Position numbers and translations under genes: made by a program | The notes under the pieces: model-generated | Databases searched by the model: none | Told to the model about the DNA's origin: nothing | What the model saw: the letters and a program-made list of their open reading frames with translations, nothing else | Assembly (NCBI GenBank): GCA_016929755.1 | Contig: JAFGIF010000187.1 | Location: 1-49,545 of the forward strand | Length of the DNA: 49,545 nucleotides | Origin: Deltaproteobacteria bacterium | GTDB taxonomy: Bacteria; Desulfobacterota; Desulfomonilia; UBA1062 | Reading direction: 5' to 3' | Shown here: positions 22,814 through 47,440 of the stretch, one piece after another | Layout: each line of letters begins with the position of its first letter | Numbering within the stretch: the stretch's first letter is position 1

Positions 22814-23659
22814 TTAGAGCTGTTTATCCATATGGGATTGAATCAGGTCAGTGCCGTTTTCCCGGAATACCCGGGTATAGAATTCAGCCGAAAGATCAAG
22901 ATCCTTTAAATAGTCAATCTCTTCTTCCCGCGGGTAAATCAGGTTTGGAAAGTCCGAGCCGTAGAGAATACGGTTTTTGTGGCGCTCAAGGAAATCCGGC
23001 GTAAGATCGCATACCAGGGATGCACTGGGCAGAAAAGACCAGGCGGTGTCGAAGTAAATGTTATCGTGTTCTTTCAGCAGGTCGAAAAAATCCCAATACT
23101 CAAAACCTCCCATATGGGCTATATTTGCAGGAAGATCCGAATATCGTTTAAGAAGACGTTTGAAATTATGGACACCAACATACTTTGTGCCTATGGGGCC
23201 TGTCCCCACGTGGAAGAGGATTCTCTTGGAGTTTTCAATCACAAGCTCATAAAGCGGAAAAAGTCGTTCATCATCAGGATAAATATTTTGAACAAGAAGC
23301 TGTAGCTTGAATCCCAGGACCTTTGGGTGTTTCAATACTTTGCGGGCCATGTCCAGGGCATGCTCGTCTCCTGGATGAAAAGCAGCAAAACAGTAGAGAT
23401 CGTCAATCTCGTCCAAGATCCGAAGATTCCATGCATTCAACCCCGGAGCTATACCTTCGCGGTGAGCATAGTTGGAATATACTATGGGGCTTACTCCACG
23501 CTGCCGGAGATAATCAACGCATTGACGATAGTAAAGCCGGTGGATAATATCCAGTTTGTATACCGAGGAAAAATACTCCCAGACGGCATCAAAGAGTCTG
23601 TCCGGGAACAGATGAACATGAAAGTCAATAATATTATCCGGAATTTTCTGCATAATCAT
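22814..23659 (-). CDS. amidohydrolase-2 family metal-dependent hydrolase/decarboxylase-like protein
   Basis: IDFHVHLFPD N-terminal metal motif; TIM-barrel amidohydrolase-2-like length (281 aa). Confidence 0.75.
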   Translation of the reverse strand: MIMQKIPDNIIDFHVHLFPDRLFDAVWEYFSSVYKLDIIHRLYYRQCVDYLRQRGVSPIVYSNYAHREGIAPGLNAWNLRILDEIDDLYCFAAFHPGDEHALDMARKVLKHPKVLGFKLQLLVQNIYPDDERLFPLYELVIENSKRILFHVGTGPIGTKYVGVHNFKRLLKRYSDLPANIAHMGGFEYWDFFDLLKEHDNIYFDTAWSFLPSASLVCDLTPDFLERHKNRILYGSDFPNLIYPREEEIDYLKDLDLSAEFYTRVFRENGTDLIQSHMDKQL

Positions 23660-23719
23660 TGCCTTGTATTGAATCTTTTTAATATATTAAATATATCAGA
23701 TAATCAAGTACTTGAATGA

Positions 23720-24628
23720 TTATTTGTTGTTCAGAAATATTCTCCAGCCAGCCAGCAGTGAGCCTGGAATGAGGTCGAATGCACCCGAGGCCTCGGCAAC
23801 AGGAGTAAAACCGCACTGGCTGCAGTCGATTTCACCCCTGCTTTTCACATAACAACCTTGGGTAATAGTGCCGTCGGGGTCTACATTTGTCAGCAGATGT
23901 TCATGGCATTTCCAGCTATTGTTGATCATGGCTTTCAAAGACCAGGTAGAATTCAGAATCGGGTAACCCTGTCTTTTTAGCATGATTGCACTTTCCATGG
24001 CCAGTCTACGTGTTTTGCGATCAAGTGCCAGCGAAGTTTCGCCCTGGTTGTAGGGGTAGAACAACTGAAGTGTAACTCCTTTAACCTGTGGGATTTGATT
24101 GAGCATATCAAGTAAATTTTCCAACTCCATCCAGTTCTGGTTGTTGATAGTGAAATGAACAAGGATTTTAGGATGAGTTGCTTTCGAAAGGTTTGCTACT
24201 ATCTTGTCAAATGAATTACAGCGCAATCTGTTATGCGTGGATTTGCTGCCATCAATACTGACCCATACAATATCAGTCGGAACATTAAGGTTGAATGTTC
24301 CGTTGGTGGTGACAGCTGTACGCAGAAATTTATTATGTGCAAGTCGGGCCAAATCAGAAAACGTATATTTACCATCTCTCCACATCAGGGGTTCCCCGCC
24401 CTCGAAGACCAGGATCCGACATGCATCATGATACAGACGTTCGATGGATTCAACGGCCGTATTCCAGCTCATGTGGTAGTTTTCCTGTTGAGATCGAAGA
24501 TGAAAAGGGCAGCCTTGGCATGTAAGATTACAGCGGTAGGTCAGCTTGAAACTGGCGATGAGCGCAACTTTCTGCCGCAGAAGTTTTGACCGTAAGAAAA
24601 ATTCTGCAAGTGACGGCAGTACACTCAT
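23720..24628 (-). CDS. radical SAM protein with C-terminal Cys-rich (SPASM/twitch-like) region
   Basis: CNLTCQGCPF CxxxCxxC motif; C-terminal CHEH..GCYVKSRGEIDCSQCGF. The start is ambiguous: ATG at 24628, or TTG at 24679 overlapping the upstream stop. Confidence 0.8.
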   Translation of the reverse strand: MSVLPSLAEFFLRSKLLRQKVALIASFKLTYRCNLTCQGCPFHLRSQQENYHMSWNTAVESIERLYHDACRILVFEGGEPLMWRDGKYTFSDLARLAHNKFLRTAVTTNGTFNLNVPTDIVWVSIDGSKSTHNRLRCNSFDKIVANLSKATHPKILVHFTINNQNWMELENLLDMLNQIPQVKGVTLQLFYPYNQGETSLALDRKTRRLAMESAIMLKRQGYPILNSTWSLKAMINNSWKCHEHLLTNVDPDGTITQGCYVKSRGEIDCSQCGFTPVAEASGAFDLIPGSLLAGWRIFLNNK

Positions 24629-24675
24629 GGCGTCTGCTTTCACATCCAAAGCAAAGTCAGACAAATGCCGTGAAA

Positions 24676-26178
24676 TCAACTGCGTCGACTTTTGGCATAC
24701 CAGACAACTTTCGCAAGGGCTTTCACCGCTGTTTCCGGGCAGGGATAGGCCATGATTCCCTGCTGGTCAAGATAATCGACAGGATTGTTATCAATAGCCA
24801 TGTCGAACATTGCAAGGTCGATAACCGGGATAACGGGTTTGCCGTGTTTTTTGATCAGATCCGTGACCATTTGGAAGAGATTCATTTCCTGGGAGATCAT
24901 GGATTCCGCCTGGCCCTGTGTGAGTTCCTGCGGAATCAATTTCGAATTCTTCCAGCTGATGGCCCTCAGTGTCATGTATCCCAGTCCCATCATGAGAACG
25001 GAATCAATTGCGGAATGTTCCATGAGGATATTAATCGAGTCTGTGATAACTTCAACATGCGATGGGGCTACAAGATCGATGGGGTTGTTTCTGCTCCAGT
25101 AAGCCGGAAGGATTCTGTCGAGTTTCTGTATCAACTCATCATCAAGTGGCTCGACGATCAATCCTTTCCTGAGGCACATGTCAGTGGCAATAACACCCCA
25201 GCCGCCTCCCAGGGTAATGATACCCACCCGGTTGCCTTCGGGAAGGGGCTGAGCGTTCAAGATTCCGGCAACATCTATCATCTCGTCCATGGTTTCCACC
25301 TGAATAATTCCGGCCTGTCTGCACATGGCGCTGAAAACTGTATCATTACTTGCGATTGCGCCCGTATGAGACATGGCGGCCTCGGCACCTTTTTGTGTAC
25401 GGCCGCCCTTGAGCAGGATGATAGGCTTTTCTCTCGAGATTCTCCTGGCGTTGTTAAAAAAGCGCTGGCCATCCCTGATACCCTCGACATACAGGCAAAT
25501 GATGCGAGTTTTTGGGTCCTGCCCAAGGTATTCCAGAAAATCTTCCGTATTGAGATCGCCCTCATTACCTGAACTGATCAGCCGGCTGATTCCGATTTTG
25601 CGGCGCAGCAAACGATAAGAAATGGATGATCCGATATTTCCGCTTTGGGCGATCATACCTACGGAACCGGGTTGCAAGGGTGCTCCGCTCATTAGGATAT
25701 GCATGATAGAAGGGTAGGCGCTGAAAATACCCATAGTGTTGGGACCTGCCAGATGCATTCCCCCGGCACGGGCCACACTGACAATTTCTTTTTCGAGCTC
25801 AGCTCCTTTTGAACCTGTTTCGGAAAATCCGGCTGTTATTATAATTCCAAACGGAATGTTTTTGGCCACGCATTTTTTTACTGTATCAAGCACCAAAGAT
25901 TCTCTGACAACGATGACGACCAGATCGATTGGTTCTGGAATACTATTCAGATCAGGATATACCTCGTGGCCGAACCATGTCCCTCCCTGTGGGTTAACCG
26001 GAAAAACATGGCCTTGAAAACCCCGGTTAACCAGGTGGTGAAGTATTATAAAACCCCATTTAAATATATTATTTGAGGCGCCGATAAAGGCGATCGTTCT
26101 CGGTTCGAAAAGGGAATTCAGCTTCGGCATACTTTCGAGAGTTGAAGGTTGCCCGTAAAGACTTGCATGTTCATTCAT
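24676..26178 (-). CDS. CoA-binding protein, NDP-forming acyl-CoA synthetase alpha-type (no ATP-grasp domain)
   Basis: 500 aa. IAFIGASNN..VFPVNP CoA-binding fold and His loop AMSHTGAIAS. RBS GGGGGGAA. Confidence 0.8.
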   Translation of the reverse strand: MNEHASLYGQPSTLESMPKLNSLFEPRTIAFIGASNNIFKWGFIILHHLVNRGFQGHVFPVNPQGGTWFGHEVYPDLNSIPEPIDLVVIVVRESLVLDTVKKCVAKNIPFGIIITAGFSETGSKGAELEKEIVSVARAGGMHLAGPNTMGIFSAYPSIMHILMSGAPLQPGSVGMIAQSGNIGSSISYRLLRRKIGISRLISSGNEGDLNTEDFLEYLGQDPKTRIICLYVEGIRDGQRFFNNARRISREKPIILLKGGRTQKGAEAAMSHTGAIASNDTVFSAMCRQAGIIQVETMDEMIDVAGILNAQPLPEGNRVGIITLGGGWGVIATDMCLRKGLIVEPLDDELIQKLDRILPAYWSRNNPIDLVAPSHVEVITDSINILMEHSAIDSVLMMGLGYMTLRAISWKNSKLIPQELTQGQAESMISQEMNLFQMVTDLIKKHGKPVIPVIDLAMFDMAIDNNPVDYLDQQGIMAYPCPETAVKALAKVVWYAKSRRS

Positions 26179-26261: not shown

Positions 26262-26990
26262 TCAACCATCGTTGAGTTTTTTCCGGTAGGACTCACGCAT
26301 GCTTTTCAGGTCTGTGGCTTCAACGCAAACGTCCTGGTATTCGCATGTGTCACAATCAAAGTCCATTTCCTGGGCCATCTTGTTCATGGCAGCGATAATC
26401 CTGGTCGTATCATGCGTTATTGCAGCCAGTTTGCGTATGTCCTGCGGGCTGGATGTCACCAGGATGCATTCTACCGCTGCTACAAAATTTAGTTTTTTGA
26501 AATTCCGGATCTGTTTTGATGCAAGCACATCAAAACAGAATCCCTCATCAAGTGCCTCATGGCTGATTCGGCACCATTCACGCTTGAACTGTGAAACAGC
26601 CCTGAGCATGTAACCCTTTAGATCGAGTCCATACCGGACCAGTTCCATTTCACGGTAGCGCTCATACGTGTTTTCTGCGTCAAAGCCGCTGACTTCAATT
26701 AGCACGATTTTACCGAATGGCAGGCTTGCCCCTCGGCTTTCCGGCAGGTCAGGGCCAATCAGGGTAATGTAATTGTCTCTGATTGTGCCTATTTTTTCAG
26801 TCCAGAGTATACAGGAAACTGATTCCATCTGGGGATTTCCCAGCTCGACGGCCATATCGCTTCCCAAAACGACATTTCGGCCCCGGCCTGAAGGCCAGTT
26901 GGTGTCCGGACTGGCCGGCCATGATCTGGGGTTGTCTTTGTGTGCCAGAAAATCCCGGAGATCATAGATTGTGTCTGCAAAAAGTTCCAT
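26262..26990 (-). CDS. stand-alone homologue of the central domain of acetyl-CoA synthase (AcsB/CdhC-like), C-terminal CxxCx5C
   Basis: 242 aa. GSDMAVELGNP...ITLIGPDLPE...LPFGKIVLIEV...W.RISHEALDEGFCF...VT resembles, from memory, the Moorella AcsB middle domain (GDMYVEMGGN...IEVIGPDIDQ...LPLGILVDIY...WLRVSKDAVAKGFRF). The ATG abuts the upstream stop. Confidence 0.55.
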   Translation of the reverse strand: MELFADTIYDLRDFLAHKDNPRSWPASPDTNWPSGRGRNVVLGSDMAVELGNPQMESVSCILWTEKIGTIRDNYITLIGPDLPESRGASLPFGKIVLIEVSGFDAENTYERYREMELVRYGLDLKGYMLRAVSQFKREWCRISHEALDEGFCFDVLASKQIRNFKKLNFVAAVECILVTSSPQDIRKLAAITHDTTRIIAAMNKMAQEMDFDCDTCEYQDVCVEATDLKSMRESYRKKLNDG

Positions 26991-27776
26991 CTAGGATCTG
27001 TCCTGTAGCGCTTTTCGGGCAACCAGGGCTGCGCCGAGGGCTCCATTGATTTGTGGATCCAACCCGGTTTTTGTGAGATTTCTCCCCAGGGCCGCTTCGA
27101 GGGCCGCAACCATGCCCGGATTTTTTGCAACGCCACCGGTAAAGGCAATGTGCTCTTCCAGTTCGATACTCTTGGCAAGTGCTGCAACACGGTGGGCCAG
27201 TGCTCTATGCAGGCCACTGATAATATCGGGCGGGGACGTCCCCTCATTGACAAGGGAGATAATTTCTGTTTCGGCAAAAATTACACACTGGTTAGAAATA
27301 GTAACCGGAGATTTTGAAGTTTGCGATACCCTGCCCATTTCTTCAATACCAATACCAAGAGCATCGGCCATGACCTCAAGGAAACGCCCGGTGCCGGAAG
27401 CACATTTGTCATTATAAATATATCGGATTACATTACCGTGGGCATCCAGTCGGATGGCCTTGGCATCCTGACCGCCGATATCGATCACCATGCGTATGGA
27501 TGCATCTTTCCACTGGGCACCCTTGCCATGACATGAAATTTCTGATTCGACAGCATCAGCAAACGGGATTTGATTGCGACCGTAGCCGGTTCCCACACAA
27601 TACGCAATTGAATCCACTAAGACTCCCGCCTGCTTGAGTGCCAGATCCATGACTTGTCTGGCCGATGTTTCAGGTTCGGGTGCGTCCTGAATAATCTGTG
27701 AAGCGAGAATGTTATTTTCATCCAGGATGACAGCCTTGGCAGTCAGAGAACCCAAATCACATCCGGCAACTATCAT
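26991..27776 (-). CDS. BcrAD/BadFG/HgdC-type activase ATPase (subunit 2)
   Basis: MIVAGCDLGS acetate/sugar-kinase fold start. Cluster cysteines in NDKCASGTGRFLE and SNQCVIFAETE. ATGA overlap with the upstream gene. Confidence 0.9.
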   Translation of the reverse strand: MIVAGCDLGSLTAKAVILDENNILASQIIQDAPEPETSARQVMDLALKQAGVLVDSIAYCVGTGYGRNQIPFADAVESEISCHGKGAQWKDASIRMVIDIGGQDAKAIRLDAHGNVIRYIYNDKCASGTGRFLEVMADALGIGIEEMGRVSQTSKSPVTISNQCVIFAETEIISLVNEGTSPPDIISGLHRALAHRVAALAKSIELEEHIAFTGGVAKNPGMVAALEAALGRNLTKTGLDPQINGALGAALVARKALQDRS

Positions 27777-28564
27777 GGATTTTCTCCTGTATACATTTGT
27801 TTGGCTATAATAGCCGCCCCGAGGGCCCCCATAATTTGAGGATCAAACTTCAATCGTTTGATTTTCACACCCAGCATTTTTTCAAGATGGCGAACTACCC
27901 CGGTATTTTTGGCTACACCCCCGGTCATACACACATCTTTTTCCAGGCCGACGTTGCCCACGAGAATGGCAACCCTGCCGGCCATGGCCCGGTTGATGGC
28001 TTCGGCAATATCACCTTTCGACTTCCCAATATTCAGGTGATGAATTACTTCGGCCTGGGCCCAGACAGTACAGGCCGATGAAAGTGTAAGTGGTTCCTGG
28101 TTTTGCCCGCCTTTTAGACCCCCGAGTTCATCAATCGCCACTCCCAGAAGCTTGGCCATGACCTCCAGAAATCTGCCGGTACCGGCGGCACATTTATCAT
28201 TTGTGGTAAATTTCTGGATGGTTCCTTCTTTATCGATTCTAATGGCCTTGCAATCCTGGCCGCCGATATCTATAACCGTCCGCACACGGGGCATAACCCA
28301 CAGGGCACCTTTTCCATGGCAGGTAATTTCCGATACCGCCTCTTGAATAAATGGGATCTTGTTGCGTCCATAGCCGGTACCCACACAGCACATAACCTGT
28401 TCCTCATGCACGGCTGCCTTTTTCAGAGCCAGCTCAAAAACCTCCCTGGCTGATTCTTCCGGTCTGGTTTTCGATCTGATAACACAATAACCCAAAACAT
28501 TTTTGTTGTTGAGAATTAAGGCCTTGCTGGTAAGTGAGCCGACATCGCACCCCGCAACGATCAT
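27773..28564 (-). CDS. BcrAD/BadFG/HgdC-type activase ATPase (subunit 1)
   Basis: MIVAGCDVGS; NDKCAAGTGRFLE and SSACTVWAQAE. ATGA overlap with the upstream gene. Confidence 0.9.
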   Translation of the reverse strand: MIVAGCDVGSLTSKALILNNKNVLGYCVIRSKTRPEESAREVFELALKKAAVHEEQVMCCVGTGYGRNKIPFIQEAVSEITCHGKGALWVMPRVRTVIDIGGQDCKAIRIDKEGTIQKFTTNDKCAAGTGRFLEVMAKLLGVAIDELGGLKGGQNQEPLTLSSACTVWAQAEVIHHLNIGKSKGDIAEAINRAMAGRVAILVGNVGLEKDVCMTGGVAKNTGVVRHLEKMLGVKIKRLKFDPQIMGALGAAIIAKQMYTGENP

Positions 28565-29964
28565 GCTCCGATCCTCCTTAATGAAATAAACTCGTTTAAT
28601 TTATCCGTTATTGATTCCCATGACTGCACCCTGTCATCAAACCCATCGGCATACAAAACAAGGGTAGGGTAGCCCGCCTTTTCAAGGTCGCGCGCAATGC
28701 ACTTGATTACACCCCAGGTATTCCGGCAGCCCATGGTGCCGACATACACAATGAAATCGACATTGAGCACTCTGGCGGCCCCCAGGGTATCATCGAGCAT
28801 CATCCCCGGTGCATCATACGGGCCCCGTATCTGCTTGACCATGGGCATGCGCGAAACCTGGTCAGCCAGCGAATCGATGATAGCCTCATCCGAGCTGTCG
28901 TCTATATCGTACGTCTGGTCCTGTTTTTCTTTTGCGTACACTACATCTTTTTGCCAGAAGGTGAACAGCATTGAGCCCAACATGCTGATATCGTGCTCAT
29001 CGATCCAGTACCAGAAACGGGCATTCGTGGTATAGTGATCGATATAACAGAACAGAGCTCTGGCTTTTTCCCTGCCCGAAAGGGTGCCGGACAGATTTTT
29101 ATCGGCGATTCCTTTTGCGGTTTGCAGCATTGATTCCAACAGCAGAGTGTATTCTCTGGTGCCACCCATCATAAACTTGCCGCCATAGAGCATCAGATCG
29201 TACATGCCGGGCAGCGGCGAAGGGACCAGGCTGGCCAGATCAAAAAGCTCGCAGGCAATCTCGTCCTGTCTTTTAATCTCGCCAACGATTTCTTTGAGAC
29301 GTGCGAAATCAAGTTTTTTGCCGGTCTGCTTTTCCAGAAAGGTAATCAGGTTGCGGAAGTCTCGCCGGTGATATTTTGTAGCCCGCTCGTCGCTGAGAGT
29401 AGGAGGGCTGTTGAGCTGAAACATGGGTTTGTCGAGAAAGGCCGAGGCAAATGCAAAGGAATTGGCATTGGTGTCACAGATGCCGGGAGAATCAAACACG
29501 ATAAAATCGGGTTGTGTGCATAAACCGGCCAGGTAGGCGCCAAGGGCTCCGCGCTGAGCTGAACAGGATGTCTCGGTAAAACCAACTTCGCAGCAGTAAT
29601 CCAGGAATTCAGTTGTGCCGCGACGCAGTACAATTGTACCCAGTACGGTCCAGACTTCGAGACACATGGGCACGATATCAAAAGCATACAGGATCGGGGG
29701 TGCCATGCAGAACGATGTCAGGGCCGTGAATTTGCCGTTTTCCTTGGAAGTTACACACATTTTCATGTAGCCGGCCATCAGTTTCAGGAAGATATCACCG
29801 GGCTGGCCAAAGCGCATGAATGCTTCCAATACAGGCCCGTAGTGCGGCACATATTTCAAGAGATTGTGATACTCCTTGCAAAAGCCTTCATTGGTTTTTG
29901 AGGCGCATTCCAGGATGGTCCAGAGATTCCAGTCGTAATTATATTCCATGGTCTCGCGTTTCAT
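28561..29964 (-). CDS. 2-hydroxyacyl-CoA dehydratase / benzoyl-CoA reductase BcrB/BzdO-like large subunit (paralogue B)
   Basis: 467 aa. Conserved cysteines in YCCEVGFTETSCS, GICDTNANSF, FCYIDHY and GTMGCRNTWG. Confidence 0.8.
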   Translation of the reverse strand: MKRETMEYNYDWNLWTILECASKTNEGFCKEYHNLLKYVPHYGPVLEAFMRFGQPGDIFLKLMAGYMKMCVTSKENGKFTALTSFCMAPPILYAFDIVPMCLEVWTVLGTIVLRRGTTEFLDYCCEVGFTETSCSAQRGALGAYLAGLCTQPDFIVFDSPGICDTNANSFAFASAFLDKPMFQLNSPPTLSDERATKYHRRDFRNLITFLEKQTGKKLDFARLKEIVGEIKRQDEIACELFDLASLVPSPLPGMYDLMLYGGKFMMGGTREYTLLLESMLQTAKGIADKNLSGTLSGREKARALFCYIDHYTTNARFWYWIDEHDISMLGSMLFTFWQKDVVYAKEKQDQTYDIDDSSDEAIIDSLADQVSRMPMVKQIRGPYDAPGMMLDDTLGAARVLNVDFIVYVGTMGCRNTWGVIKCIARDLEKAGYPTLVLYADGFDDRVQSWESITDKLNEFISLRRIGA

Positions 29965-30002
29965 TCTAATTCATCATAGTATTGTAATATAAATTAGTTT
30001 AA

Positions 30003-31409
30003 TCAATGCGCACCAATACGACGCAGTTTCATAAATTCATCCATACGATCCGTTATTGCTTCCCATGATTGAATCCTGTCATCAAAGGCGTCTGCATACA
30101 GGACCAGGCACGGGATGCCGTAGCGTTCGAGGTCACGCGTAAATGGTTTTACCATGCCCCAGGTATTCCGGCAGCCCATAGTTCCGATATAGACCACAAA
30201 GTCGGTCTTCAGAAGACTGGCAGCACCCAGGGTATCGTCCAACCACATGCCCGGTGCATCGTAGGGCCCCCTTATCGATTTAACCATGGGCATTCGTGAT
30301 ACCTGGTCAGCCAGGGAGTCGATCATGCCCTCGAGACTGTGATCGTCGATACAATAGCCCTGTTCCTCTTTAGAATGTGCCTGGGGATTGTCGGCCTGCC
30401 AGAAATTATACAGGATGGAACCCATGTGGCTAATTTCATGCGAGTCGAGCCAGTCCCAGAACCTGACATCGGTGGTGTAGTGATCGATGTAACAGAACAA
30501 TCCGCGGGCCTTCTCCCTTGTCGATGTAGTGCCGGCAATGCCGAGTCTGGAATTTTTCCTGGTAACAGCGAGCATGGCCTCGAGCAATTCGGAATACTCG
30601 CTGGTTCCACTCATGAGGAATCTTCCTGAATACAAAAACAGATCATATATAGGCGGCATTGGGCAGGGAATCAGTCGCTGCAGTTCCATCAGTTCGATAG
30701 CCAGCTCATCCTGGCGTTTGACGTGCTCAATGATTTGGGAAAGCCTTGAAAGGTCGAGTTTTTTGCCGGTCTGTTTTTCGAGGAATTCAATCAGACTGTG
30801 GAAATCCTGGCGGTGATAGCGGCGGGCCCGTTCATCGGTGAGCGTAGGCGGAAAGTTCAGCTGAAAAAAAGGGATATCGAGATAGGCCGAGGCAAAGGAA
30901 AATGAGTTTGCATTGGTATCACAGATGCCGGGCGAGTCGCAGATAATGAAATCGATGTCTACTCCCAGCCCGGCCAGGTATGCACCCAGCGCACCGCGTT
31001 GAGATGAGCAGGATGTTTCGGTAAAGCCCAGTTCGCAGCAGTAATCCATAAACTCTCCGGTTCCGCGCTGCAGTATTACGGTGCCGAACACACTCCAGGG
31101 CTCGAGTATCAGGGGCTGGACATCAAACGCATACAGGATGGGGGCGGCAAAACAGAATGTTGAGGCAGCTATTTTTCTGCCTTCTGCATAGGCCTGGATG
31201 CAATTGCGCGTGTAGGAAGCCAGCAGCTTTAAAAAGAGAATACCCGGTTCGCCGTGCCTGACGAATGCTTCCAGAACCCCCCGGAAATTCGGTATAAGTG
31301 AAAGCAGATGCTGATACTCTTTTTCAAAGCCGTCGTATGCGCGCGATGCGTTTTCAACGATGGTCCACAGGTTCCAGTCGTAGTTGTATTCCCTGGATTC
31401 CTTTCGCAT
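30003..31409 (-). CDS. 2-hydroxyacyl-CoA dehydratase / benzoyl-CoA reductase BcrB/BzdO-like large subunit (paralogue A)
   Basis: 468 aa. Collinear with the 467-aa neighbour, with well over half the positions identical by eye. Same Cys motifs. RBS AAGGAGAG. Confidence 0.8.
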   Translation of the reverse strand: MRKESREYNYDWNLWTIVENASRAYDGFEKEYQHLLSLIPNFRGVLEAFVRHGEPGILFLKLLASYTRNCIQAYAEGRKIAASTFCFAAPILYAFDVQPLILEPWSVFGTVILQRGTGEFMDYCCELGFTETSCSSQRGALGAYLAGLGVDIDFIICDSPGICDTNANSFSFASAYLDIPFFQLNFPPTLTDERARRYHRQDFHSLIEFLEKQTGKKLDLSRLSQIIEHVKRQDELAIELMELQRLIPCPMPPIYDLFLYSGRFLMSGTSEYSELLEAMLAVTRKNSRLGIAGTTSTREKARGLFCYIDHYTTDVRFWDWLDSHEISHMGSILYNFWQADNPQAHSKEEQGYCIDDHSLEGMIDSLADQVSRMPMVKSIRGPYDAPGMWLDDTLGAASLLKTDFVVYIGTMGCRNTWGMVKPFTRDLERYGIPCLVLYADAFDDRIQSWEAITDRMDEFMKLRRIGAH

Positions 31410-31421
31410 TCAAACTCTCCT

Positions 31422-31652
31422 TTACAGATTCATGTTGAGGGTGGCACCCTCTTTGATGCGGCTGATATAAAAACCGGCCCGTTCCTTTAGTATGCCCACA
31501 TCAGTTTTCTTTGAGATGTTTTTGAGTGCCTTGAGTGCTGACTCGTGAAACAGCGTCAGGGCATCGATGGACCGTTGCCTTTCAGCCAGAATGCGGTTTG
31601 AATCAAGGGCAATTTTTTTTAACACCTCAATGGTAATCGCTTCGGTATCCAT
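31422..31652 (-). CDS. small helical protein (76 aa), HEAT-repeat-like
   Basis: Good RBS (AGGGAAGGAA). Sits between dehydratase-family genes with 12- and 17-nt gaps. No cysteines. Confidence 0.5.
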   Translation of the reverse strand: MDTEAITIEVLKKIALDSNRILAERQRSIDALTLFHESALKALKNISKKTDVGILKERAGFYISRIKEGATLNMNL

Positions 31653-31669
31653 CAGTTCCTTCCCTTTGA

Positions 31670-32800
31670 TCAGATTTTTTCCAGAAATGCGTCGATACGC
31701 ATTTTGACCCTGCCGGATTCGACCAACGGTCCGTACTCCCGCTCCATTTTCAGGCAGGCAATGCCCGCTGCCTCGAGATCGCGCACAAAGATGCCGTTTT
31801 CAGAACCATGCAGATCACAAAAGCGGATGTTCTGCAGGATCACTCCATCGACCCTAGCCTCGACAACCTTCTGCTTGATGAAATTCAGGCGCTCTTTATA
31901 GTACCCGAACATGCGCGGACAGTAGGCATGATTTAAATACCTTTTTGCCAGAGCCTTTACGGGATCAGTGGTTTCTTCAACCAGATCATGGTGTGTTCTG
32001 GATCCAAAACACATGCTGTCGGCAACGATCACGGCACCGCAGTCTTCGATTACCTTGAAAAAGTCAAGATCATCATTAATGCTGCCCACTATCATCAGGC
32101 GTTTTCGTCCCGGTATGATCTTGCAGGTGGTTTCAATGTTATCCAGAAACCCGCTAAGAATTGGAATATACGTTTCTTTTGGCATGGCTGTGTTTGCAAC
32201 GACCAGAGCCAGGGCATCCTCGCCGGTTATTCTGCAATCTTCACCGATTTTGATTTGATCCAGCTGCTTCAAGAGACGGCGGCCTTGGTTGTAGAGTTTT
32301 ATCGAATTGTTCAGGTCTTGATCCGTAACAGAGATCGAAAAATGCTCTTCAATACTTTTGATGAAAAGTTGAATTTCCTCTTCAAACCATTGAAGGCTGT
32401 AATCCGTGACCTTGTGCGGCACCCCGAAGTAGTGGAAATACCCGGGCCGGATACCCGGGATATCTTTATCCGCCTTTCGCCAGCATTCATCAAGGCGGCG
32501 CATGGAATCACAGCCGTTTGACATCACGGTCCCGTCGAGGAAGGAGTATTTTTTGTTTCCGGCCAGTTCAAGCACGCATTTCGGGAAACTGCAGATTACC
32601 GGGCCGAAATAGGTGTCACCTACGGAAAGTGATGAAATGCCGATACCCCGCAAACGAAACGGCAACAGACCGGCAGCATGAATAATCTCTTCGGGTACAT
32701 AGGTGCACGGATAACCAACAACGAATTTACCGGATTTTTTCCAGGCCTCGACATACTCATTGAAAATACTTCGGGCTACCTGCTTGAAGTTTTCGATCAT
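31670..32800 (-). CDS. 2-hydroxyacyl-CoA dehydratase / benzoyl-CoA reductase HgdB/BcrC/BzdN-like small subunit
   Basis: 376 aa. YPCTYVPEEIIHAAGLLPFR, SNGCDSMRR, YCPRM and RFCDLH are typical of the HGD-D family. ATGA overlap with the upstream gene. Confidence 0.85.
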   Translation of the reverse strand: MIENFKQVARSIFNEYVEAWKKSGKFVVGYPCTYVPEEIIHAAGLLPFRLRGIGISSLSVGDTYFGPVICSFPKCVLELAGNKKYSFLDGTVMSNGCDSMRRLDECWRKADKDIPGIRPGYFHYFGVPHKVTDYSLQWFEEEIQLFIKSIEEHFSISVTDQDLNNSIKLYNQGRRLLKQLDQIKIGEDCRITGEDALALVVANTAMPKETYIPILSGFLDNIETTCKIIPGRKRLMIVGSINDDLDFFKVIEDCGAVIVADSMCFGSRTHHDLVEETTDPVKALAKRYLNHAYCPRMFGYYKERLNFIKQKVVEARVDGVILQNIRFCDLHGSENGIFVRDLEAAGIACLKMEREYGPLVESGRVKMRIDAFLEKI

Positions 32801-34086
32801 GATTCACTCCAGTTTGCTGCAAGCATGGAGCGCAAGGCCTGCAAGGCCTCTTCCATTTCGTCTGTATGATCGATATCAGTTGAGCCAATCAATTCACACA
32901 AGCCCAGGATCAATGGGGGCAAGAGTTCTGTAACAACAGGAGTGAGAGCGTCTGATACTTCCGGGATCAACCACTCACAGGTATCCTTAAGCGCAGATGT
33001 ATCGATTGAATCGGCGAAATCCTTAAGCAGTCCACCAAAGAGTTCGGGCCTGACTGTATGCATACGGTTGATTATTGAGAGCAAAGAATTCGTAATATCG
33101 GCCATCTTCTGGGTATCAATGTCAGAAATGCCGCTGTTGGCAGCTTCTGCAAATTCATCATCCAGGTCGTCATAGAAAGCAATTTTGTGGGAAACGCTGC
33201 GGATGCCGGGATTTTTCAGTGCTGCATATGATTTCATGCTAAAAAGCAGGGTCTGCGGGTTCTGGCTGAGAACATTGGCCAAAGAACTGGCGATGGTTTC
33301 CTTGTCCTCAGCAAGAGCAATGCGGGACTTGGTGAGTATTTCCGGATCGATAGCGGCAAGGAAATCGTTAAGAAAGTCTAAAAGATAAAATTCGAAAAGT
33401 GATTTGTCGCCTTTTGCCAGCAGTGCACTGCCGGTATGCAGCCTCCTGATCAGCTCGGATATTGAATTGGTCAGTTTCGCTGTTTCTTCTCCACTTAGTT
33501 CACGCAAGATCGAAAGCAGAATATCGGCGGTCAGGTCAGGGCCAAGGTTCTGTAAGAGCGGTCGTATGATTTCAGAAAGACCCTTGATCGATGTGTTACC
33601 GATAGACAGTAAAATTCCCACCAGACAACCGATTTTAGCCGGGTAGGGCCAGATTGCATTATTGATCGATTCAAGAGTCTTCAGCAGGCACGCTTCTGAG
33701 CCTTCCACCAGTTCTTTCAGTTCCCCGAAGTCAGTATGGCCTATCAGATCGGTTATCGATCCAGTGCGTTCTTCGGCATGGCAAACCGGATTCTTCTGGT
33801 GGGCGGCATTGATGTTCCTGGCATAGTTGGTAAGAAGGTCACCCAGGTCACAGGAAAGTGTTGCATTGTTTTGCGGTGATTCATTTTTCAGTGAGCGGGA
33901 AATAAGCCCATTAAAAGGTTTGGCGATTTTTTGCCGTATCCGACTGCCCAGCGACCACTGGCCGAGTATATCACGGGCGATGCAGAGAATCAGCCTTCTG
34001 GGTCCAGCGGAAAACAGCGCCCTGGATATGATCTTGCTGGTCTGATCTGTCAGATTACCTGCATCCTGCCGGCTTAATTCATTCAT
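32797..34086 (-). CDS. helical protein of unknown function (long paralogue)
   Basis: ATG at 34086 has GGAGG 9 nt upstream; the track start at 34095 is a TTG abutting the RBS. Shares a module with the 214-aa and 144-aa proteins upstream. Confidence 0.6.
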   Translation of the reverse strand: MNELSRQDAGNLTDQTSKIISRALFSAGPRRLILCIARDILGQWSLGSRIRQKIAKPFNGLISRSLKNESPQNNATLSCDLGDLLTNYARNINAAHQKNPVCHAEERTGSITDLIGHTDFGELKELVEGSEACLLKTLESINNAIWPYPAKIGCLVGILLSIGNTSIKGLSEIIRPLLQNLGPDLTADILLSILRELSGEETAKLTNSISELIRRLHTGSALLAKGDKSLFEFYLLDFLNDFLAAIDPEILTKSRIALAEDKETIASSLANVLSQNPQTLLFSMKSYAALKNPGIRSVSHKIAFYDDLDDEFAEAANSGISDIDTQKMADITNSLLSIINRMHTVRPELFGGLLKDFADSIDTSALKDTCEWLIPEVSDALTPVVTELLPPLILGLCELIGSTDIDHTDEMEEALQALRSMLAANWSES

Positions 34087-34178
34087 ATTATTCAACCTCC
34101 AATGTATTATAATCGTGTCAGTTTCGTGAAACCTGATGCTTCATCACATTACAAATTCTTTTTTGCCGGGTTTACTCC

Positions 34179-34805
34179 TTATTTCCCTTTGTCTGTAAGG
34201 TAGGCTTCGAACATTGCCATGTTGCATACGATAAGTGTTTTAATACATTCTTTGCGCGATGCATCTTTCTCCATCAGATAACTATGTAGGACCTGTAACG
34301 CCATACCCACGGCTGCATGTCCGAAAAGGAATGGATCAACCCCGTCGATAATTCCTTGATCTATCCAGCGCGTTGTGTCTTCAGCCAGATCATGGGCGAG
34401 ATTGCAGAAATAATTCCAGGAATTGTAGTCGAATTCTTTATCCACTCCGAAGCTTCCACGCAAGATCATCATCAGTTGCTGGGGATGGCTGTCGACAAAA
34501 TCAAACAGGGCGGTGTACATCTCAAGGAGCGTTTTTCTGCGGTCATGGTAATCCCAGATGTCAACAGGTTCTCTGATGAGTTTGAGGTGAAGCCTGAGGT
34601 TTTCAACGCTGTTAATGGTAATCTGCTCAAAGAGGTCGCGTTTGTCATTGAAGTAATTATAGAATGTTCCTGCAGAAACACCCGCGGCTTTGACAATATC
34701 CATTACCTGAGTATTGTGATAACCTTTCTTGCTGAACAACTCACGGGCAGTATCGAAGATTAATTCCCGGGTTATTTCGCGCCTTTTCTTCGCAATATTT
34801 GACAT
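34179..34805 (-). CDS. TetR/AcrR family transcriptional regulator
   Basis: N-terminal HTH FDTARELFSKKGYHNTQVMDIVKAAGVSAGTFYNYFNDKRDLF. Confidence 0.9.
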   Translation of the reverse strand: MSNIAKKRREITRELIFDTARELFSKKGYHNTQVMDIVKAAGVSAGTFYNYFNDKRDLFEQITINSVENLRLHLKLIREPVDIWDYHDRRKTLLEMYTALFDFVDSHPQQLMMILRGSFGVDKEFDYNSWNYFCNLAHDLAEDTTRWIDQGIIDGVDPFLFGHAAVGMALQVLHSYLMEKDASRKECIKTLIVCNMAMFEAYLTDKGK

Positions 34806-34918
34806 ATCTGGGCTATGCCTCCTGAATACAAAAAAATTGAAAATATGTTACTAAAAGACAGTGAAGAGTCATTACCTGTCAATGGTTGTATCTCCCATAT
34901 CAATTCCATTTTTTGGTA

Positions 34919-35563
34919 CTATATTAATTTAGCAAAGCGTTTACGCAGCCTTGTGATCAGGAGCTTGCCGCTCCACGGCAGGATCGGAAACAGTTTCAGA
35001 TCCAGCAGGGCATGGGCCATTACCTGGGCCGCATCACTGAGTTCGTCGGTATCGAGGTTGCTGATCACATCGGAAACAAATGTGCCTATGCTTTGAGGAT
35101 CATCTCTGCTGAGGTCATTGATCCGGGTAGTTATTGCATTTATACTCTCTGCAATAATACCCGGTCCCCTCTCCATGATACTCTGCTTTAGTTCGGGTGA
35201 ATTCCTCCATGCATCTGTTGCCAGCTTGTTGATTGCCTGCCCGCACGCTTTTAGAGAATCCTGATTGATATCATCAACAAGACTCGTGGTAAATTGAACT
35301 AAAAGCCGGGGTGAAAATTTGTCGCCCATTTCGCTGACAAGTTGAAAAACCGTATGTATCCCCGAGTTGATCAAGGCGGGCAGGGTTGCAATGAGTGCCA
35401 GGGTCAGCTCAGGATCCTGCCACAGGTTGGTTGGTTTGCAATGGCTGTAATCCTTTGAGACCATAGAACGCATTTGTACACGCAGCATGTCCTTGATAAA
35501 CGGGGTGCTGATAAGCTCTTTCAGAATACCGACGTGCTTGTTTCCATCAGTGGATATCTGCAT
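34919..35563 (-). CDS. helical protein of unknown function (214-aa paralogue)
   Basis: LWQDPELTLALIATLPALINS...MGDKFSPRLLVQFTTSLVDDIN parallels the 144-aa protein. TAATG coupling with the upstream gene. Confidence 0.55.
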   Translation of the reverse strand: MQISTDGNKHVGILKELISTPFIKDMLRVQMRSMVSKDYSHCKPTNLWQDPELTLALIATLPALINSGIHTVFQLVSEMGDKFSPRLLVQFTTSLVDDINQDSLKACGQAINKLATDAWRNSPELKQSIMERGPGIIAESINAITTRINDLSRDDPQSIGTFVSDVISNLDTDELSDAAQVMAHALLDLKLFPILPWSGKLLITRLRKRFAKLI

Positions 35564-35997
35564 TATGGTTGGCCTTTGTCTTGAGTTACTGAATCATGAC
35601 CGGCTTGCTGCAGCAACTCTTTCAATAGCGGAGAGAGATCCCGTGCCAGTGGTTGTAGGTTTTGAATGATGCGCTGCAGTCTGACTGCATCAATTTCATC
35701 AAGCAGCGATCCCACGAATCCGGCCAGCAAATCCGGGGTAAATTTATCATGGATCTGTATAAGCAGTTCATCAATGGCCCTGATCAGAGAGTTTGCTACA
35801 CCAGGAAGTGCCCCCAGAAGCCCCAGGCTCACTTCGATATCCTGCCATAGCAGAGTTTTTACCAGTTCAGGGCTTGATTCAGGATCAATGTTTTTCAGCG
35901 TGATACGCAGATTTTCTTTGAACTCAGGCTTATTCAGAAACCCGGCCAGCATCCGGTTGGTAGTATTGATAACACCTCTGTTATGGTTGGCATGCAT
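35563..35997 (-). CDS. helical protein of unknown function (144-aa paralogue)
   Basis: LLWQDIEVSLGLLGALPGVANS...IHDKFTPDLLAGFVGSLLDEID. The AGGAGA RBS lies inside the end of the upstream acyl-CoA dehydrogenase gene. Confidence 0.55.
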   Translation of the reverse strand: MHANHNRGVINTTNRMLAGFLNKPEFKENLRITLKNIDPESSPELVKTLLWQDIEVSLGLLGALPGVANSLIRAIDELLIQIHDKFTPDLLAGFVGSLLDEIDAVRLQRIIQNLQPLARDLSPLLKELLQQAGHDSVTQDKGQP

Positions 35998-36009: not shown

Positions 36010-37290
36010 TTAGAGGGTTTTACAGTTGAAGAAATACCGGGCGGCTTCCATCTGGCAGAGCTGCTTGCCGCCCATCCAGAGCTGGATAATCTTGACATCA
36101 CGCCAGTGTTTCTCGATATCCCATTCACGGTCAGGACCATATGCACCCAGCACATCCATGGCACGGCCGAATATCTCCACGGACTTGTCCGAAATAAAGT
36201 CTTTGATATTGCGGATTTTAGCGATGGTTTCCTCTGAGCCGAGTTCGTTGCCGAAGGGCATGTTGCGGCGGTCACCGATCCTGGCGGCTTCGTGCCCTAA
36301 TATCCGGCAGATATCTATATCTCCGGCAATACGTCCGATCACACCGGCTACGGCATCGTTTTCCTTGAGTGTGCGATTACAATAGGTACGTGTTGAAACG
36401 AATTCATAGAGCCGTTCATACAGGTTCAGCATGGCGCCGGTAAGAAAGCCGCAACTTGCAACCTGGCCCCAGGGAATTACCTCTACGAAGGTCTGGGCAT
36501 CCAGGACCGGGCCGTGGGCCCGGTACCAGGAAGGTACCCGCACATCCTCGAACCAGATATCACTGTTTTTGTCGGCTGCCATGCCGGCTTTTTCATACGG
36601 GTTGCCCTCGCTCACGCCTTTGGTATCTGTCGGCACGAAGATAATGGCAAAATCATCTAAGTCACTGGAGCCGAGCTTTGTTGTACAGGGCACACCGAAC
36701 AGTTTTGATACCCCGGCCGAATTGGTCGGCCAAAGTTTATGTCCGTTGATAACCCATTCGTCACCATCCAACCGGGCAGTGGTTCGTAGTGTTTTCCCGC
36801 CCAGAAGCCCTATATTTTCGATATCAGCGCCACCCTGGGGCTCGGTCATGGTAAGCGCTGAGAATACGGCACAATCGGAATTGCAGAACATGGGGGCGAA
36901 TTCTTTAGCCAAGCGCCAGTTTACATGTGGTTCGATCAGGATGGTGGTCAGTGGCCATAATGTGACCAGAAAGGCCACTGCCATGCCGGTGTCTGCCCGG
37001 CCGACTTCTTCTGAAAGGGCATAGGAAGTCATGAAGGTGCTGTCTGAATGGCCGAGTCCCCAGCCGCCAAGTTCCTCCGGAAAAAGGGCTTTCTGTAAAC
37101 CCAGTCCCTTGTTGCCCATGAGCTTGTCAAAGGCGGGCTCGATCAGCTTGTGCTCTTTCCAGTCTTCGTCAAAGCGCCTGCGGAATGGGAGAACTTCCTC
37201 GTCGGCCCATTTCCGGATAACCGTGCGCAGGTGTTTGTCCATGGGCGATATGTATTCCAGCGGACGAGAGAAATCGTCAAAATGTTTCAT
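36010..37290 (-). CDS. acyl-CoA dehydrogenase family protein
   Basis: ACAD-like N, middle and C-terminal domains (LTMTEPQGGADI, ...IQLWMGG). ATG at 37290 forms an ATGA overlap with the upstream stop, with AAGAGG 8 nt upstream. Confidence 0.88.
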   Translation of the reverse strand: MKHFDDFSRPLEYISPMDKHLRTVIRKWADEEVLPFRRRFDEDWKEHKLIEPAFDKLMGNKGLGLQKALFPEELGGWGLGHSDSTFMTSYALSEEVGRADTGMAVAFLVTLWPLTTILIEPHVNWRLAKEFAPMFCNSDCAVFSALTMTEPQGGADIENIGLLGGKTLRTTARLDGDEWVINGHKLWPTNSAGVSKLFGVPCTTKLGSSDLDDFAIIFVPTDTKGVSEGNPYEKAGMAADKNSDIWFEDVRVPSWYRAHGPVLDAQTFVEVIPWGQVASCGFLTGAMLNLYERLYEFVSTRTYCNRTLKENDAVAGVIGRIAGDIDICRILGHEAARIGDRRNMPFGNELGSEETIAKIRNIKDFISDKSVEIFGRAMDVLGAYGPDREWDIEKHWRDVKIIQLWMGGKQLCQMEAARYFFNCKTL

Positions 37291-38534
37291 GAGCATACCT
37301 CTTTGCAGTCATAGAAAAAGCGGGCAATATCCATTTTGACCGGAATGTCTGCGGCCACACCGCACAGGGAGGACTGCACAGTCTTTATATCACGCCAGTG
37401 TTTTTCAACATGCCATTCTCTGGCATAGCCGGCCGAACCCATCAGTTCCATTCCACGGTTGAGCGCATTCAGTGCACTGTCCTGTACACTGGACCCAATC
37501 ATGCGGGCAATGGTGTAGATGCTCTCGCCGCCGATGCCCCTAAGTGCAAGGGGATCGGCCATGATCTGGCTCAGACTGTAGCACAACAGGCGGGCGCAGG
37601 TGATTTCTTGGGCAACCGTTGCCAGGACAGAGGCGCACAAAGGATTTTCCTTCATGGGTATGCCGCCCTTGATCGTGCGGCTTTGGGCCCATTCGGTCAG
37701 GATCTCGAAAAAATTCATGGCGGCCCCGATGCTTACTCCCCCCAGCAGCAGGTTCAGCCACACGTACAGCTCTTCCACAGCACCATCCCTTGAAATGATA
37801 TATTCTTTGGGTATTCTGACAGATTCAAACGAGATATCTGTGTTTTCAGAGGCATCCAGGCCGGTCTGTTTTATCGGCAATCCTTTTTTTACGCCAGAGA
37901 TGTCTGCGGGGACAAAGGCCAGGCATATCTTCCCGCTGCTTTGCGCACAAACCACACACAACAGGTCGGATGCTTTTCCAAAGCCGAAAGGTCTCAGGTT
38001 TTCGCCGCTGACCACGTATTCGTTATCATCGGCTGCAATCCCGGCAAGCACGGACATGCCCCTGAATAGTGGTGTTTTCCGATCGTTTATACCGGCACCT
38101 GGCAGGATCGCTGTGGAAGTCTTGAGTTTATCGCTTAAATAGAGTGGAGCGAGGGCATCGCACAGGTCGTCCTTAATGTTAGGATGCATAGTAATAGTGG
38201 CAAAAATTGCATAGTCAAGAGCGTTAGCCAGACCAATGGAGGCATCCCCCCGGCCAATTTCAGTGAATGCTGTCAGAATTGCGGGTGCATACGAGGGGCT
38301 GTTCCAGCCATAACCATCGTATTTTTCGGACAAAACAAGCCGCTTCAGGCCGATATCTATGCCGAGTTTTCTGCATTTTTCAGGGAAGAGCAGGGTATAA
38401 TTCTGCTGATAGTTCAGCCTGTCGGATATGATTTCTTTGTCGGCCCACTGCCTGATTGTGGTGGAAAAACTGCGGGCATCTTCATCCACCCAGTGCTTGG
38501 GGTATATGAACAGTTTATCCAGATCGACACTCAT
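37287..38534 (-). CDS. acyl-CoA dehydrogenase family protein
   Basis: ACAD-like C-terminus (GSAGYAREWHVEKHWRDIKT). ATG at 38534 has AGGAGG 5 nt upstream, so it is preferred to the track start at 38552. Confidence 0.88.
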   Translation of the reverse strand: MSVDLDKLFIYPKHWVDEDARSFSTTIRQWADKEIISDRLNYQQNYTLLFPEKCRKLGIDIGLKRLVLSEKYDGYGWNSPSYAPAILTAFTEIGRGDASIGLANALDYAIFATITMHPNIKDDLCDALAPLYLSDKLKTSTAILPGAGINDRKTPLFRGMSVLAGIAADDNEYVVSGENLRPFGFGKASDLLCVVCAQSSGKICLAFVPADISGVKKGLPIKQTGLDASENTDISFESVRIPKEYIISRDGAVEELYVWLNLLLGGVSIGAAMNFFEILTEWAQSRTIKGGIPMKENPLCASVLATVAQEITCARLLCYSLSQIMADPLALRGIGGESIYTIARMIGSSVQDSALNALNRGMELMGSAGYAREWHVEKHWRDIKTVQSSLCGVAADIPVKMDIARFFYDCKEVCS

Positions 38535-38552
38535 ATGCCCTCCTTTAATCAA

Positions 38553-47122: not shown

Positions 47123-47140
47123 TTTCCCCTCTCATCCCTG

Positions 47141-47374
47141 TTAAAGCTGTGTGCTCTTATCTTCCAGAAACTTAATCAATGATTCCACGGGATAGGCAAT
47201 TCTTCTTTTCCCGATACGTACTCGATCCTTTACGCCTTTCCCCATGCAATCCAGGTTTGCCATAGTTCTGGGATTCAATATTCCACCGGAAAATTTGCCG
47301 ACTTCGCTTCTTGCTACCAAAGCCGACGGCCACTGTTCTGCCATTTTTGTAAAATCAAAATTTGCTCGTTTCAT
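47141..47374 (-). CDS. excisionase/AlpA-like small DNA-binding protein
   Basis: 77 aa, GGAGG RBS. The pattern ARSEVGKFSGG..NPRTMANL...RIGKRRIAYPVESLIKFLE resembles excisionase-type HTH proteins. Confidence 0.5.
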   Translation of the reverse strand: MKRANFDFTKMAEQWPSALVARSEVGKFSGGILNPRTMANLDCMGKGVKDRVRIGKRRIAYPVESLIKFLEDKSTQL

Positions 47375-47440
47375 AAAAAAAACCTCCGTTCTTATTTTGT
47401 GATCACGGATGTAATCTTATGAAAACAAACGTAAAGAATC

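Follow-up and report, generated by a model that had tools for sequence, protein, structure and literature searches.

An uncharacterised operon of the BCR/HAD radical enzyme superfamily with a duplicated catalytic subunit beside a single small subunit and two ATPases

Results

Overview of the operon

An operon from a Deltaproteobacteria bacterium of the UBA1062 lineage was analysed on a 49,545-nucleotide (nt) stretch of contig JAFGIF010000187.1 (assembly GCA_016929755.1), which is referred to here as the window and whose positions serve as coordinates throughout. Five tightly packed genes on the minus strand, at 26991-32800, encode one small and two large HGD-D proteins and two ATPases. Judged by its sequence, the operon is an uncharacterised member of the BCR/HAD radical enzyme superfamily, all three features of which it displays, and the duplication of its catalytic subunit is, by the comparisons described below, real, conserved and selected. 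On balance, we lean towards the view that the operon specifies a bzdNOPQ-like ATP-dependent enzyme, in which the two large subunits, L468 and L467, would be alternative catalytic partners of the single small subunit, S376, and of the single pair of ATPases, ATP263 and ATP261. This view is favoured since one small and one large subunit are the ancestral and commonest state, each paralogue type stands alone in some genomes, and orphan copies exist; it is also favoured since both copies are catalytic in type and differ beside the catalytic Glu as well as two residues after the ligand C134. The original prediction had offered two possibilities, namely two alternative catalytic modules with a common small subunit and a common ATPase module, or a three-subunit core, and it is the former that fits best.

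The inventory on which that prediction was built (two ATPases, two large subunits of about 467 amino acids (aa) and one small subunit of 376 aa) was borne out, as all five open reading frames (ORFs) were found in their places and confirmed by Pfam, although it had omitted the small protein p76, the translationally coupled U432 (429-432 aa) and a CdhC-like protein with three Cys. The HGD-D domain (PF06050) was present in all three core proteins above the Pfam cut-off (E-values of 2e-81, 5e-43 and 4e-48), and both ATPases passed PF01869 (BcrAD_BadFG) and TIGR00241. Overlaps of 4 nt join the start of ATP263 to the stop of L467, ATP261 to ATP263, and the stop of U432 to the start of S376, and the CdhC-like gene follows ATP261 directly, with zero gap. 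It had also been reported that there is only one small subunit, and indeed a Pfam screen of p76 and of 23 of the window ORFs that lie outside the operon and reach 150 aa or more revealed no other HGD-D gene. The comparisons drew on 78 related loci, obtained by a scan of species-representative genomes and annotated with the window proteins, all of which are from metagenome-assembled genomes of anaerobes (Smithella, Syntrophaceae, Desulfomonilia, Desulfobacteraceae, Leptospirales and Bacillota).

A six-cysteine small subunit and two catalytic-type large subunits

The closest solved relative of S376 (31670-32800, minus strand), the small, electron-transfer-type HGD-D subunit, is BzdN (E 1.9e-38, 135 bits), ahead of HadC, MbdN and the double-cubane cluster protein (DCCP; 97 bits). 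Its residues C32, C70, C97, C264, C294 and C328 lie opposite Cys of BzdN and DCCP, and each of the six is conserved without exception in 72 orthologues. In BzdN, an [8Fe-9S] double cubane is bound by six Cys (PMC11971306), and the same six Cys occur in DCCP within a seven-Cys motif (PMC7317905). The seventh Cys is absent from S376, where the position of the second motif Cys is occupied by G52. The alignment of HadC, by comparison, has Cys at only four of the six ligand-type positions of S376. Among the NCBIfam models, the best match of S376 was double_cubane (NF040772), with 171.8 bits against a cut-off of 350, i.e., about half. S376 is thus viewed as the electron-transfer subunit, the six Cys of which presumably hold an [8Fe-9S] double cubane.

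The large subunits, both encoded on the minus strand, are the tandem paralogues L468 (30003-31409; copy 1) and L467 (28561-29964; copy 2), which had been described as collinear and are indeed 64% identical over 467 residues with zero gaps. S376 and L467 have no BLASTP similarity, and the S-family and L-family profiles are related, with an hhalign probability of 92%. The L-family profile aligned to HadB (3e-15) and BzdO (7e-8), such that C134 and C163 coincided with Cys (taken to be the ligands C95 and C128) in two BzdO stretches, DLCS and QICCSH, and E103 with the catalytic E65 of BzdO; E103 is invariant in 99 of 99 family members. The position of H131, the proton donor of BzdO, is taken by Asn166, which is likewise invariant in the 99 members of the L family. 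Six conserved Cys motifs had been listed for the large subunits, and all of them exist, but only C134 (TSCS), C163 (ICDT) and C413 (GCR) are invariant in the 99 members; C124 is found in 92, C86 in 76 and C125 in 69 of them, and C306, the Cys of the FCY motif, is variable, being Ser, Ala or Phe in some members. When the C-terminal fragment of L468 was compared by sequence with solved structures, no alignment was obtained for the third ligand. Profile-profile comparison with the S family placed C413 opposite the last ligand Cys of S and C163 in exact register as well, whereas C134 came within one position of S C75. In the same comparison, a second cluster that might receive electrons was absent from the L subunit. 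The Cys ligands could thus be mapped onto HadB and BzdO for the large subunit and onto BzdN and DCCP for the small one, by sequence and profile alignment, and a [4Fe-4S] site with three Cys is predicted for L468.

Structural modeling agreed with this assignment. The AlphaFold (AF2) model of L468 had a pLDDT of 81 and a pTM of 0.87, and with this model as query, Foldseek returned HadB, BzdO and MbdO as the top matches (TM 0.73-0.79), with the support subunits ranking lower. Considering the ligand alignments, the fold ranking and the relationship of S376 to BzdN, the two large proteins are identified, from sequence and model together, as the catalytic subunit, and S376 as the electron-transfer subunit.

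Two ATPases of one type

The two ASKHA-type electron-transfer ATPases, also encoded on the minus strand, are ATP263 (27773-28564) and ATP261 (26991-27776), which share 52% identity. The cluster motifs NDKCA(A/S)GTGRFLE and C(T/V)(V/I)(W/F)A are present in both, as had been claimed, and their Cys are invariant (C125 and C165 of ATP263 in 70 orthologues, C125 and C164 of ATP261 in 68). The helix after the second cluster Cys is diverged in ATP263 alone (C-T-V-W-A-Q), consistently across its orthologues, whereas in ATP261 it is canonical (C-V-I-F-A-E). MbdQ was the closest solved relative of both, scoring 204 bits against 121 for MbdP with ATP263, and 208 against 137 with ATP261; both ATPases are also nearer to HgdC and HadI than to MbdP. 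One gene of each type, in the same order, was found in nearly all loci whose contig reaches far enough. A heterodimer like BcrA/BcrD had been proposed, and two distinct ATPase genes are indeed constant in the family, but they do not look like an A/D pair, as both are closest to the MbdQ/HgdC type. On sequence grounds, the pair therefore appears to be of neither the P/Q nor the A/D kind, and is traced to a duplication within its own family, so that the pairing of ATPases would have arisen independently. The two are expected to form an ATP263-ATP261 heterodimer.

The nature of these subunits bears on a rival reading, that two enzymes are encoded in one operon: S376 would be a DCCP-like homodimer with its own homodimeric ATPase, while the large subunits would dimerise with each other and use the other ATPase. 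Both DCCP and its ATPase are indeed homodimers (PMC7317905), the two ATPases of the operon are of one Q/HgdC-like type, and S376 has six ligand Cys and finds its best NCBIfam match (172 bits) in double_cubane. However, this score is half of the cut-off, the seventh DCCP Cys is lacking, and S376 is nearest to BzdN, which is a heterodimer partner. Moreover, every complete locus has S next to L, arranged like bzdN and bzdO, and L has no second cluster to receive the electrons. We consider it improbable that the operon encodes two enzymes.

Both large-subunit copies are intact and under purifying selection

The possibility had been raised that one of the paralogues might be a decaying duplicate that has lost cluster or substrate residues. 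Sixteen residues that were checked are invariant across the 99 members of the family, and both window copies keep all of them; in L467 these include E103, C134, Q137, R138, C163, D164, N166, H310, C413, R414 and N415. A close relative of the locus, L079/L080, was retrieved through a search with U432, and has exactly the gene order and gene lengths of the window. Against L079, from which the window differs by a synonymous divergence (dS) of just 0.3-0.4, the ratio of nonsynonymous to synonymous divergence (dN/dS) was 0.080 for L468, 0.112 for L467, 0.104 for S376 and 0.12-0.13 for the ATPases, and values of 0.03-0.12 were obtained in orthologous pairs of upstream as well as downstream copies. 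The retained residues and the low dN/dS together indicate that both copies are under strong purifying selection and that neither is decaying; the notion of a decaying duplicate was thus rejected.

The two copies are not identical around the active site. Next to the catalytic Glu, L468 has I-L-E-P-W and L467 has C-L-E-V-W. Residue 136, two residues after C134 (codons at about 31002-31004 and 29557-29559), is Ser in the upstream and Ala in the downstream copy in 19 of 20 tandem pairs, and either Ser or Ala in single-copy loci. They also differ in their leaders, as a strong Shine-Dalgarno sequence (AAAGGAGAG) precedes L468, whereas the 38-nt spacer before L467 (29965-30002, minus strand) is AT-rich and has none, although it is partly conserved in the close relative.

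These findings also bear on the possibility that the duplication is simply redundant, with both copies doing the same job for dosage or robustness, or one of them decaying slowly. Redundancy would be in keeping with the small number of positions at which the copy lineages differ consistently, with the missing Shine-Dalgarno sequence of L467, and with the apparent renewed loss of one copy in some lineages (L010, L017 and L024). Nonetheless, the copies have diverged to 64% identity, with a mutual dS of 1.9, at which synonymous sites are saturated, and yet dN/dS is about 0.1 or less for both; the pair is retained across divergent lineages, the residues beside the catalytic Glu differ, and not one locus contained a frameshift or a partial remnant. 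Redundancy is therefore given little credence.

Attention had further been drawn to a run of 23 identical nucleotides shared by the paralogues. The run is real, as an exact match was found twice, at 28712-28734 (plus strand) and 30157-30179, and on the coding strand it specifies the motif MGCRNTWG, which holds the third Cys ligand. In a simulation in which both protein sequences and the codon usage of the genes were held fixed, however, runs of at least 23 nt appeared in 15% of the simulations (P about 0.15), and the synonymous-codon identity of L468 and L467 is even along the genes, at about 48%. Since the run is thus at chance level and synonymous identity is even, it carries no information on gene conversion, which was rejected as its source.

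Related loci and history of the duplication

The core gene order in the related loci is U432, S, (p76), L, ATP263-type, ATP261-type and CdhC-like. A single S with a single L, arranged S-(p76)-L-ATPase-ATPase as in bzdNOPQ, is found in 51 of the 78 loci; one S and two L in 20, one of which is cut by the contig end; and L without a complete S in seven, representing contig ends or orphan copies. A second close S occurs in none of the 78. From these sequences, one S and one L are read as the ancestral as well as the commonest state, and the duplication as a lineage-specific addition. Accordingly, the composition that had been called non-canonical is so in the window, where the large subunit is duplicated, but the family baseline is the canonical small-large-ATPase-ATPase set of bzdNOPQ.

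The position of the extra L is informative. It follows p76, to give S-p76-L-L, in the window and its close relative, in L018 and in seven Smithella loci, while in eleven others (L007, L008, L012-14, L019, L021-23, L025 and L030) the arrangement is S-L-p76-L; in L010, L017 and L024 it is S-L-p76-ATPase, which looks like loss of the copy behind p76. Because the extra L stands at different places relative to p76, at least two separate duplications or insertions are indicated. In a bootstrapped neighbour-joining tree of the L sequences, several paralogue groups had 100% support; L468 grouped with the upstream copies of Smithella (63%) and L467 with the second copy of L018 (100%). Copies of clade A occur beside a second L (L007, L008 and others) as well as being the only L (L010, L017, L024 and L026), and a relative of Smithella copy 2 is the only L of L020. 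As each paralogue type is thus the sole L in some loci, each can work without the other. Orphan L genes adjoin pairs of acyl-CoA dehydrogenase genes in L028 and L029, the latter next to a CdhC-like gene as well, with the small subunit and ATPases absent nearby; the same genomes hold the complete loci L040 and L053.

The distribution of the copies is directly relevant to the other rival, that the core is a heteromer of L468 and L467 or an assembly of three subunits, in which the paralogues are obligate partners with S376 attached, at a fixed stoichiometry previously unseen. An L468-L467-type pair is kept together in the same order in the window, the close relative and seven Smithella loci, the Ser/Ala alternation after C134 is maintained between the copies of 19 of the 20 tandem pairs, and members of the superfamily form pseudo-symmetric dimers of two HGD-D subunits (PMC11971306), which would favour such a core. 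On the other hand, 51 of the 78 loci work with one L, each paralogue type also serves as the sole L, orphan L genes lie away from any second L, and neither copy has lost catalytic-type residues, as would be expected of a purely structural partner. An obligate heteromeric core is therefore unlikely, though we rank it somewhat above redundancy and above two separate enzymes.

Another possibility that had been raised was that relatives might carry a second small subunit nearby that the window misses, which was not the case. A distant second module is present downstream in 24 loci and absent from the window; it consists of S', L', one ATPase and often a ferredoxin-domain protein. As S' never occurs without an L' of its own, it is not the partner that a duplicated L would be lacking, and a missed second small subunit was rejected, as none was seen among the screened ORFs of the window or close by in the 78 loci and S' is always accompanied by its own L' and ATPase. 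As an example, the second module of L068 (14481-19340 of that locus) encodes a small subunit with six Cys, a large subunit of 503 aa, one ATPase and a protein with a ferredoxin domain.

The large-subunit family as a whole is compact. A search of 1.84 billion representative proteins gave about six full-length clusters (at 50% identity) with scores above 400 bits, and 122 proteins reached an E-value of 1e-30. Its members are named in the sources merely as 'dehydratase family protein' or 'hypothetical protein'. The full-text literature searches made for this operon found no description of the family, and those on dehydratases or reductases of Smithella and Syntrophales, plus a paper on limonene degradation, offered no link.

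Accessory genes and neighbourhood

The gene for p76, a Cys-free helical protein of 76 aa, lies between S376 and L468 (31422-31652, minus strand) and has a ribosome-binding site, GGGAAGGA. By tblastn, p76 was detected with 51-71% identity in 41 of the 78 loci, where its gene always comes immediately before one for a large subunit, and was absent from the more distant half of the family; its core motif is ERQRAIDALTLF. It evolves as a coding sequence, with a dN/dS of 0.015-0.21 in the six pairs for which dS was computable, and gene callers annotate it, at 76 aa, in the close relative. It had no match in Pfam or NCBIfam. An RNA element in the 260-nt gap between S376 and L468 was also considered, and was rejected because Rfam had no match there and the gap holds p76.

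Downstream of the ATPases, the CdhC-like gene (26262-26990, minus strand) encodes 242 aa that comprise the middle domain of acetyl-CoA synthase (PF03598, E 2e-11) and a C-terminal CxxCx5C motif. The protein aligns to residues 310-456 of the 705-residue NF040764 (bifunctional bacterial-type acetyl-CoA synthase) and to the first 160 of archaeal CdhC, and its C213, C216 and C222 are invariant in 58 orthologues. The gene is found 3' of the ATPases in about 60 of the 78 loci, which are most of those with contigs reaching that far, and is on the opposite strand in L046. Directly after it, 54 of the 78 loci have a gene for a CooC/CbiA-like P-loop ATPase (e.g., L068:13710-14480), which is absent at this place in the window and its close relative. 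The pairing of CdhC-like and CooC-like proteins recalls that of acetyl-CoA synthase with its Ni-insertion ATPase, and by this analogy suggests a role in a metal site or its maturation.

On the other side of the core, U432 (32797-34095, minus strand; started at Met4 by gene callers, which gives 429 aa) has a homologue upstream of S in 69 of the 78 loci, the exceptions being those in which S is incomplete or absent or the contig end intervenes. Neither Pfam nor NCBIfam returned a match for it, and its homologues are all annotated as 'hypothetical'. Its AlphaFold model (pLDDT 80) is all alpha, and comparison of the model with folds in the PDB gave no match (best E 2.2). Further upstream, at 34179-35997 on the minus strand, are the genes of two paralogous helical proteins, U144 and U214 (33% identity, E 2e-19), to which U432 is weakly related (E 0.004), and of a regulator with a TetR_N domain; all three genes are widely conserved among the loci.

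The head of the cluster is formed by two tandem, divergent acyl-CoA dehydrogenase-like genes with Pfam ACAD domains, ACAD428 and ACAD421 (36010-38552, minus strand). ACAD428 is the most conserved protein of the locus, with 70-82% identity in nearly all loci. The best NCBIfam models for these proteins, namely cyclohexane-1-carbonyl-CoA dehydrogenase, glutaryl-CoA dehydrogenase and acryloyl-CoA reductase, were all matched far below the cut-off, so that no substrate can be assigned from them. At the 3' end of the cluster, a gene for a protein like the alpha part of NDP-forming acyl-CoA synthetases (24676-26178, minus strand; CoA_binding_2, Succ_CoA_lig and TIGR02717) recurs downstream in L010, L012, L015 and the close relative L079, and is a candidate for the CoA activation step. 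The Pfam screen revealed no CoA-transferase domain in the cluster.

Other features of the window may be noted. There are three NDP-forming acyl-CoA synthetase-like genes in all, at 570-1946 (minus), 10549-12678 (plus) and the position just described. The cluster ends with the genes of a PTO1314-type radical SAM protein and of an Amidohydro_2 protein (22814-24679, minus strand), homologues of which lie downstream in L012, L014 and L025. The window ends with genes for an 851-aa DUF3987 protein and a 407-aa tyrosine integrase (44567-49308, minus strand), which are probably part of an integrated mobile element. Scans for promoters and terminators returned counts equal to the shuffled expectation and were uninformative, and the one metatranscriptome of the source study contained none of the locus sequence, and hence says nothing on expression.

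Discussion

By analogy, the operon would work most like a Bzd-type reductase. The gene order of small HGD-D, large HGD-D, ATPase and ATPase is that of BzdNOPQ and MbdONPQ; BzdN resembles S376 in its length of about 376 aa and in its six ligand Cys; and the Bzd type likewise has a large subunit with three ligand Cys and a catalytic Glu, along with two ATPase genes, each with two cluster Cys. However, the NCBIfam scores of the window proteins are far from the respective cut-offs (bzdN 141 against 453.8, bzdO 26 against 448.6, bzdQ 213 and 192 against 380.2), Glu65 of BzdO is kept whereas its His131 is not, and both ATPases are Q-like, with none P-like. The window system also adds p76, U432, the CdhC-like protein and the second catalytic subunit, and its operon is without the ferredoxin and dienoyl-CoA pathway genes.

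The dehydratases HadBC/HadI and HgdAB/HgdC are similar in that HadB is the best match of the large subunit in both sequence and fold. An acyl-CoA dehydrogenase is encoded nearby, as it is in the had operon of Clostridioides difficile. Unlike S376 with its six aligned ligand Cys, however, HadC has a single [4Fe-4S] cluster with three Cys ligands; the dehydratases have one gene for a homodimeric activator instead of two ATPase genes; their CoA-transferase is absent from our cluster; and their NCBIfam models, too, gave scores far below the cut-off. With DCCP and DCCP-R, the operon shares an ATP-driven transfer from an ASKHA ATPase and, in S376, Cys at six of the seven positions of the DCCP motif, which includes the six ligands. 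DCCP differs in that it is homodimeric, is served by the product of a single ATPase gene and lacks a separate catalytic subunit, whereas S is always accompanied by L and two ATPases, and S376 departs from the DCCP model in its missing seventh Cys and its halved score. Overall, the equivalog scores far below cut-off, the replaced His of BzdO, the small subunit unlike HadC and the incomplete seven-Cys motif place the operon outside every characterised BCR/HAD family. A further comparison is with class II benzoyl-CoA reductase, in which multiple paralogues of the active-site gene bamB exist beside fewer electron-transfer modules; this is an unrelated tungsten enzyme, not driven by ATP, the bamB paralogues of which are mostly dispersed in the genome.

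The mechanism that we propose is built on these likenesses, and its cluster types, subunit partners, electron path and reaction type are those that we infer from the sequences. A low-potential donor would reduce the [4Fe-4S] cluster held between ATP263 and ATP261, and ATP hydrolysis would drive the electron into the six-Cys, presumably [8Fe-9S], cluster of S376. From there the electron would move to the three-Cys [4Fe-4S] cluster, with one open iron, in the large catalytic subunit, where a thioester, probably an acyl-CoA, would be reduced (more likely) or dehydrated via a ketyl radical. The preference for a reductase over a dehydratase is based on the presence of two ATPase genes, the six Cys of the small subunit and a gene order like that of bzdNOPQ. 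The duplication would then provide two isoenzymes with different active-site surroundings.

Several observations weigh against the reading of L468 and L467 as alternative partners in a Bzd-like enzyme. The replacement of H131 of BzdO by an invariant Asn in the L family means that the reaction may differ from ring reduction, and L467, lacking a Shine-Dalgarno sequence, may be produced at a low level. As both ATPases are Q/HgdC-like, it is possible that they form two homodimers rather than a heterodimer. Within the window type, the copy-1 and copy-2 lineages are told apart consistently at just 10 positions, so that the evidence for a diverged substrate specificity is thin; the clues to the substrate extend only as far as general acyl-CoA metabolism; and the poor support of the deep nodes in the L tree leaves the number of duplication events uncertain. 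Lastly, a mixed (S-L468)(S-L467) assembly, or a pairing of L468 with L467, is conceivable.

More broadly, and only tentatively, we suggest a modular radical reductase, in which one injection unit of two ATPases and an [8Fe-9S] small subunit would serve interchangeable catalytic subunits, whether in tandem or as orphans; if so, the substrate range would be widened without duplicating the costly ATPase machinery. The accessories p76, U432 and the three-Cys protein derived from acetyl-CoA synthase are not known from any benzoyl-CoA reductase or dehydratase, and may be a sign that the metal site or its maturation is unusual, and that the substrates belong to a class new to this enzyme family. The ATP-driven BCR/HAD enzymes catalyse some of the most reducing reactions in biology, and just a handful of their substrates are known. 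Should the single small subunit and the single ATPase pair indeed serve both large subunits, the operon would be a clear natural example of subunit swapping in this enzyme class, and a convenient system for learning what sets substrate specificity. The constant link to two divergent acyl-CoA dehydrogenases, in turn, suggests that syntrophic and sediment bacteria have an acyl-CoA pathway that has gone unrecognised.

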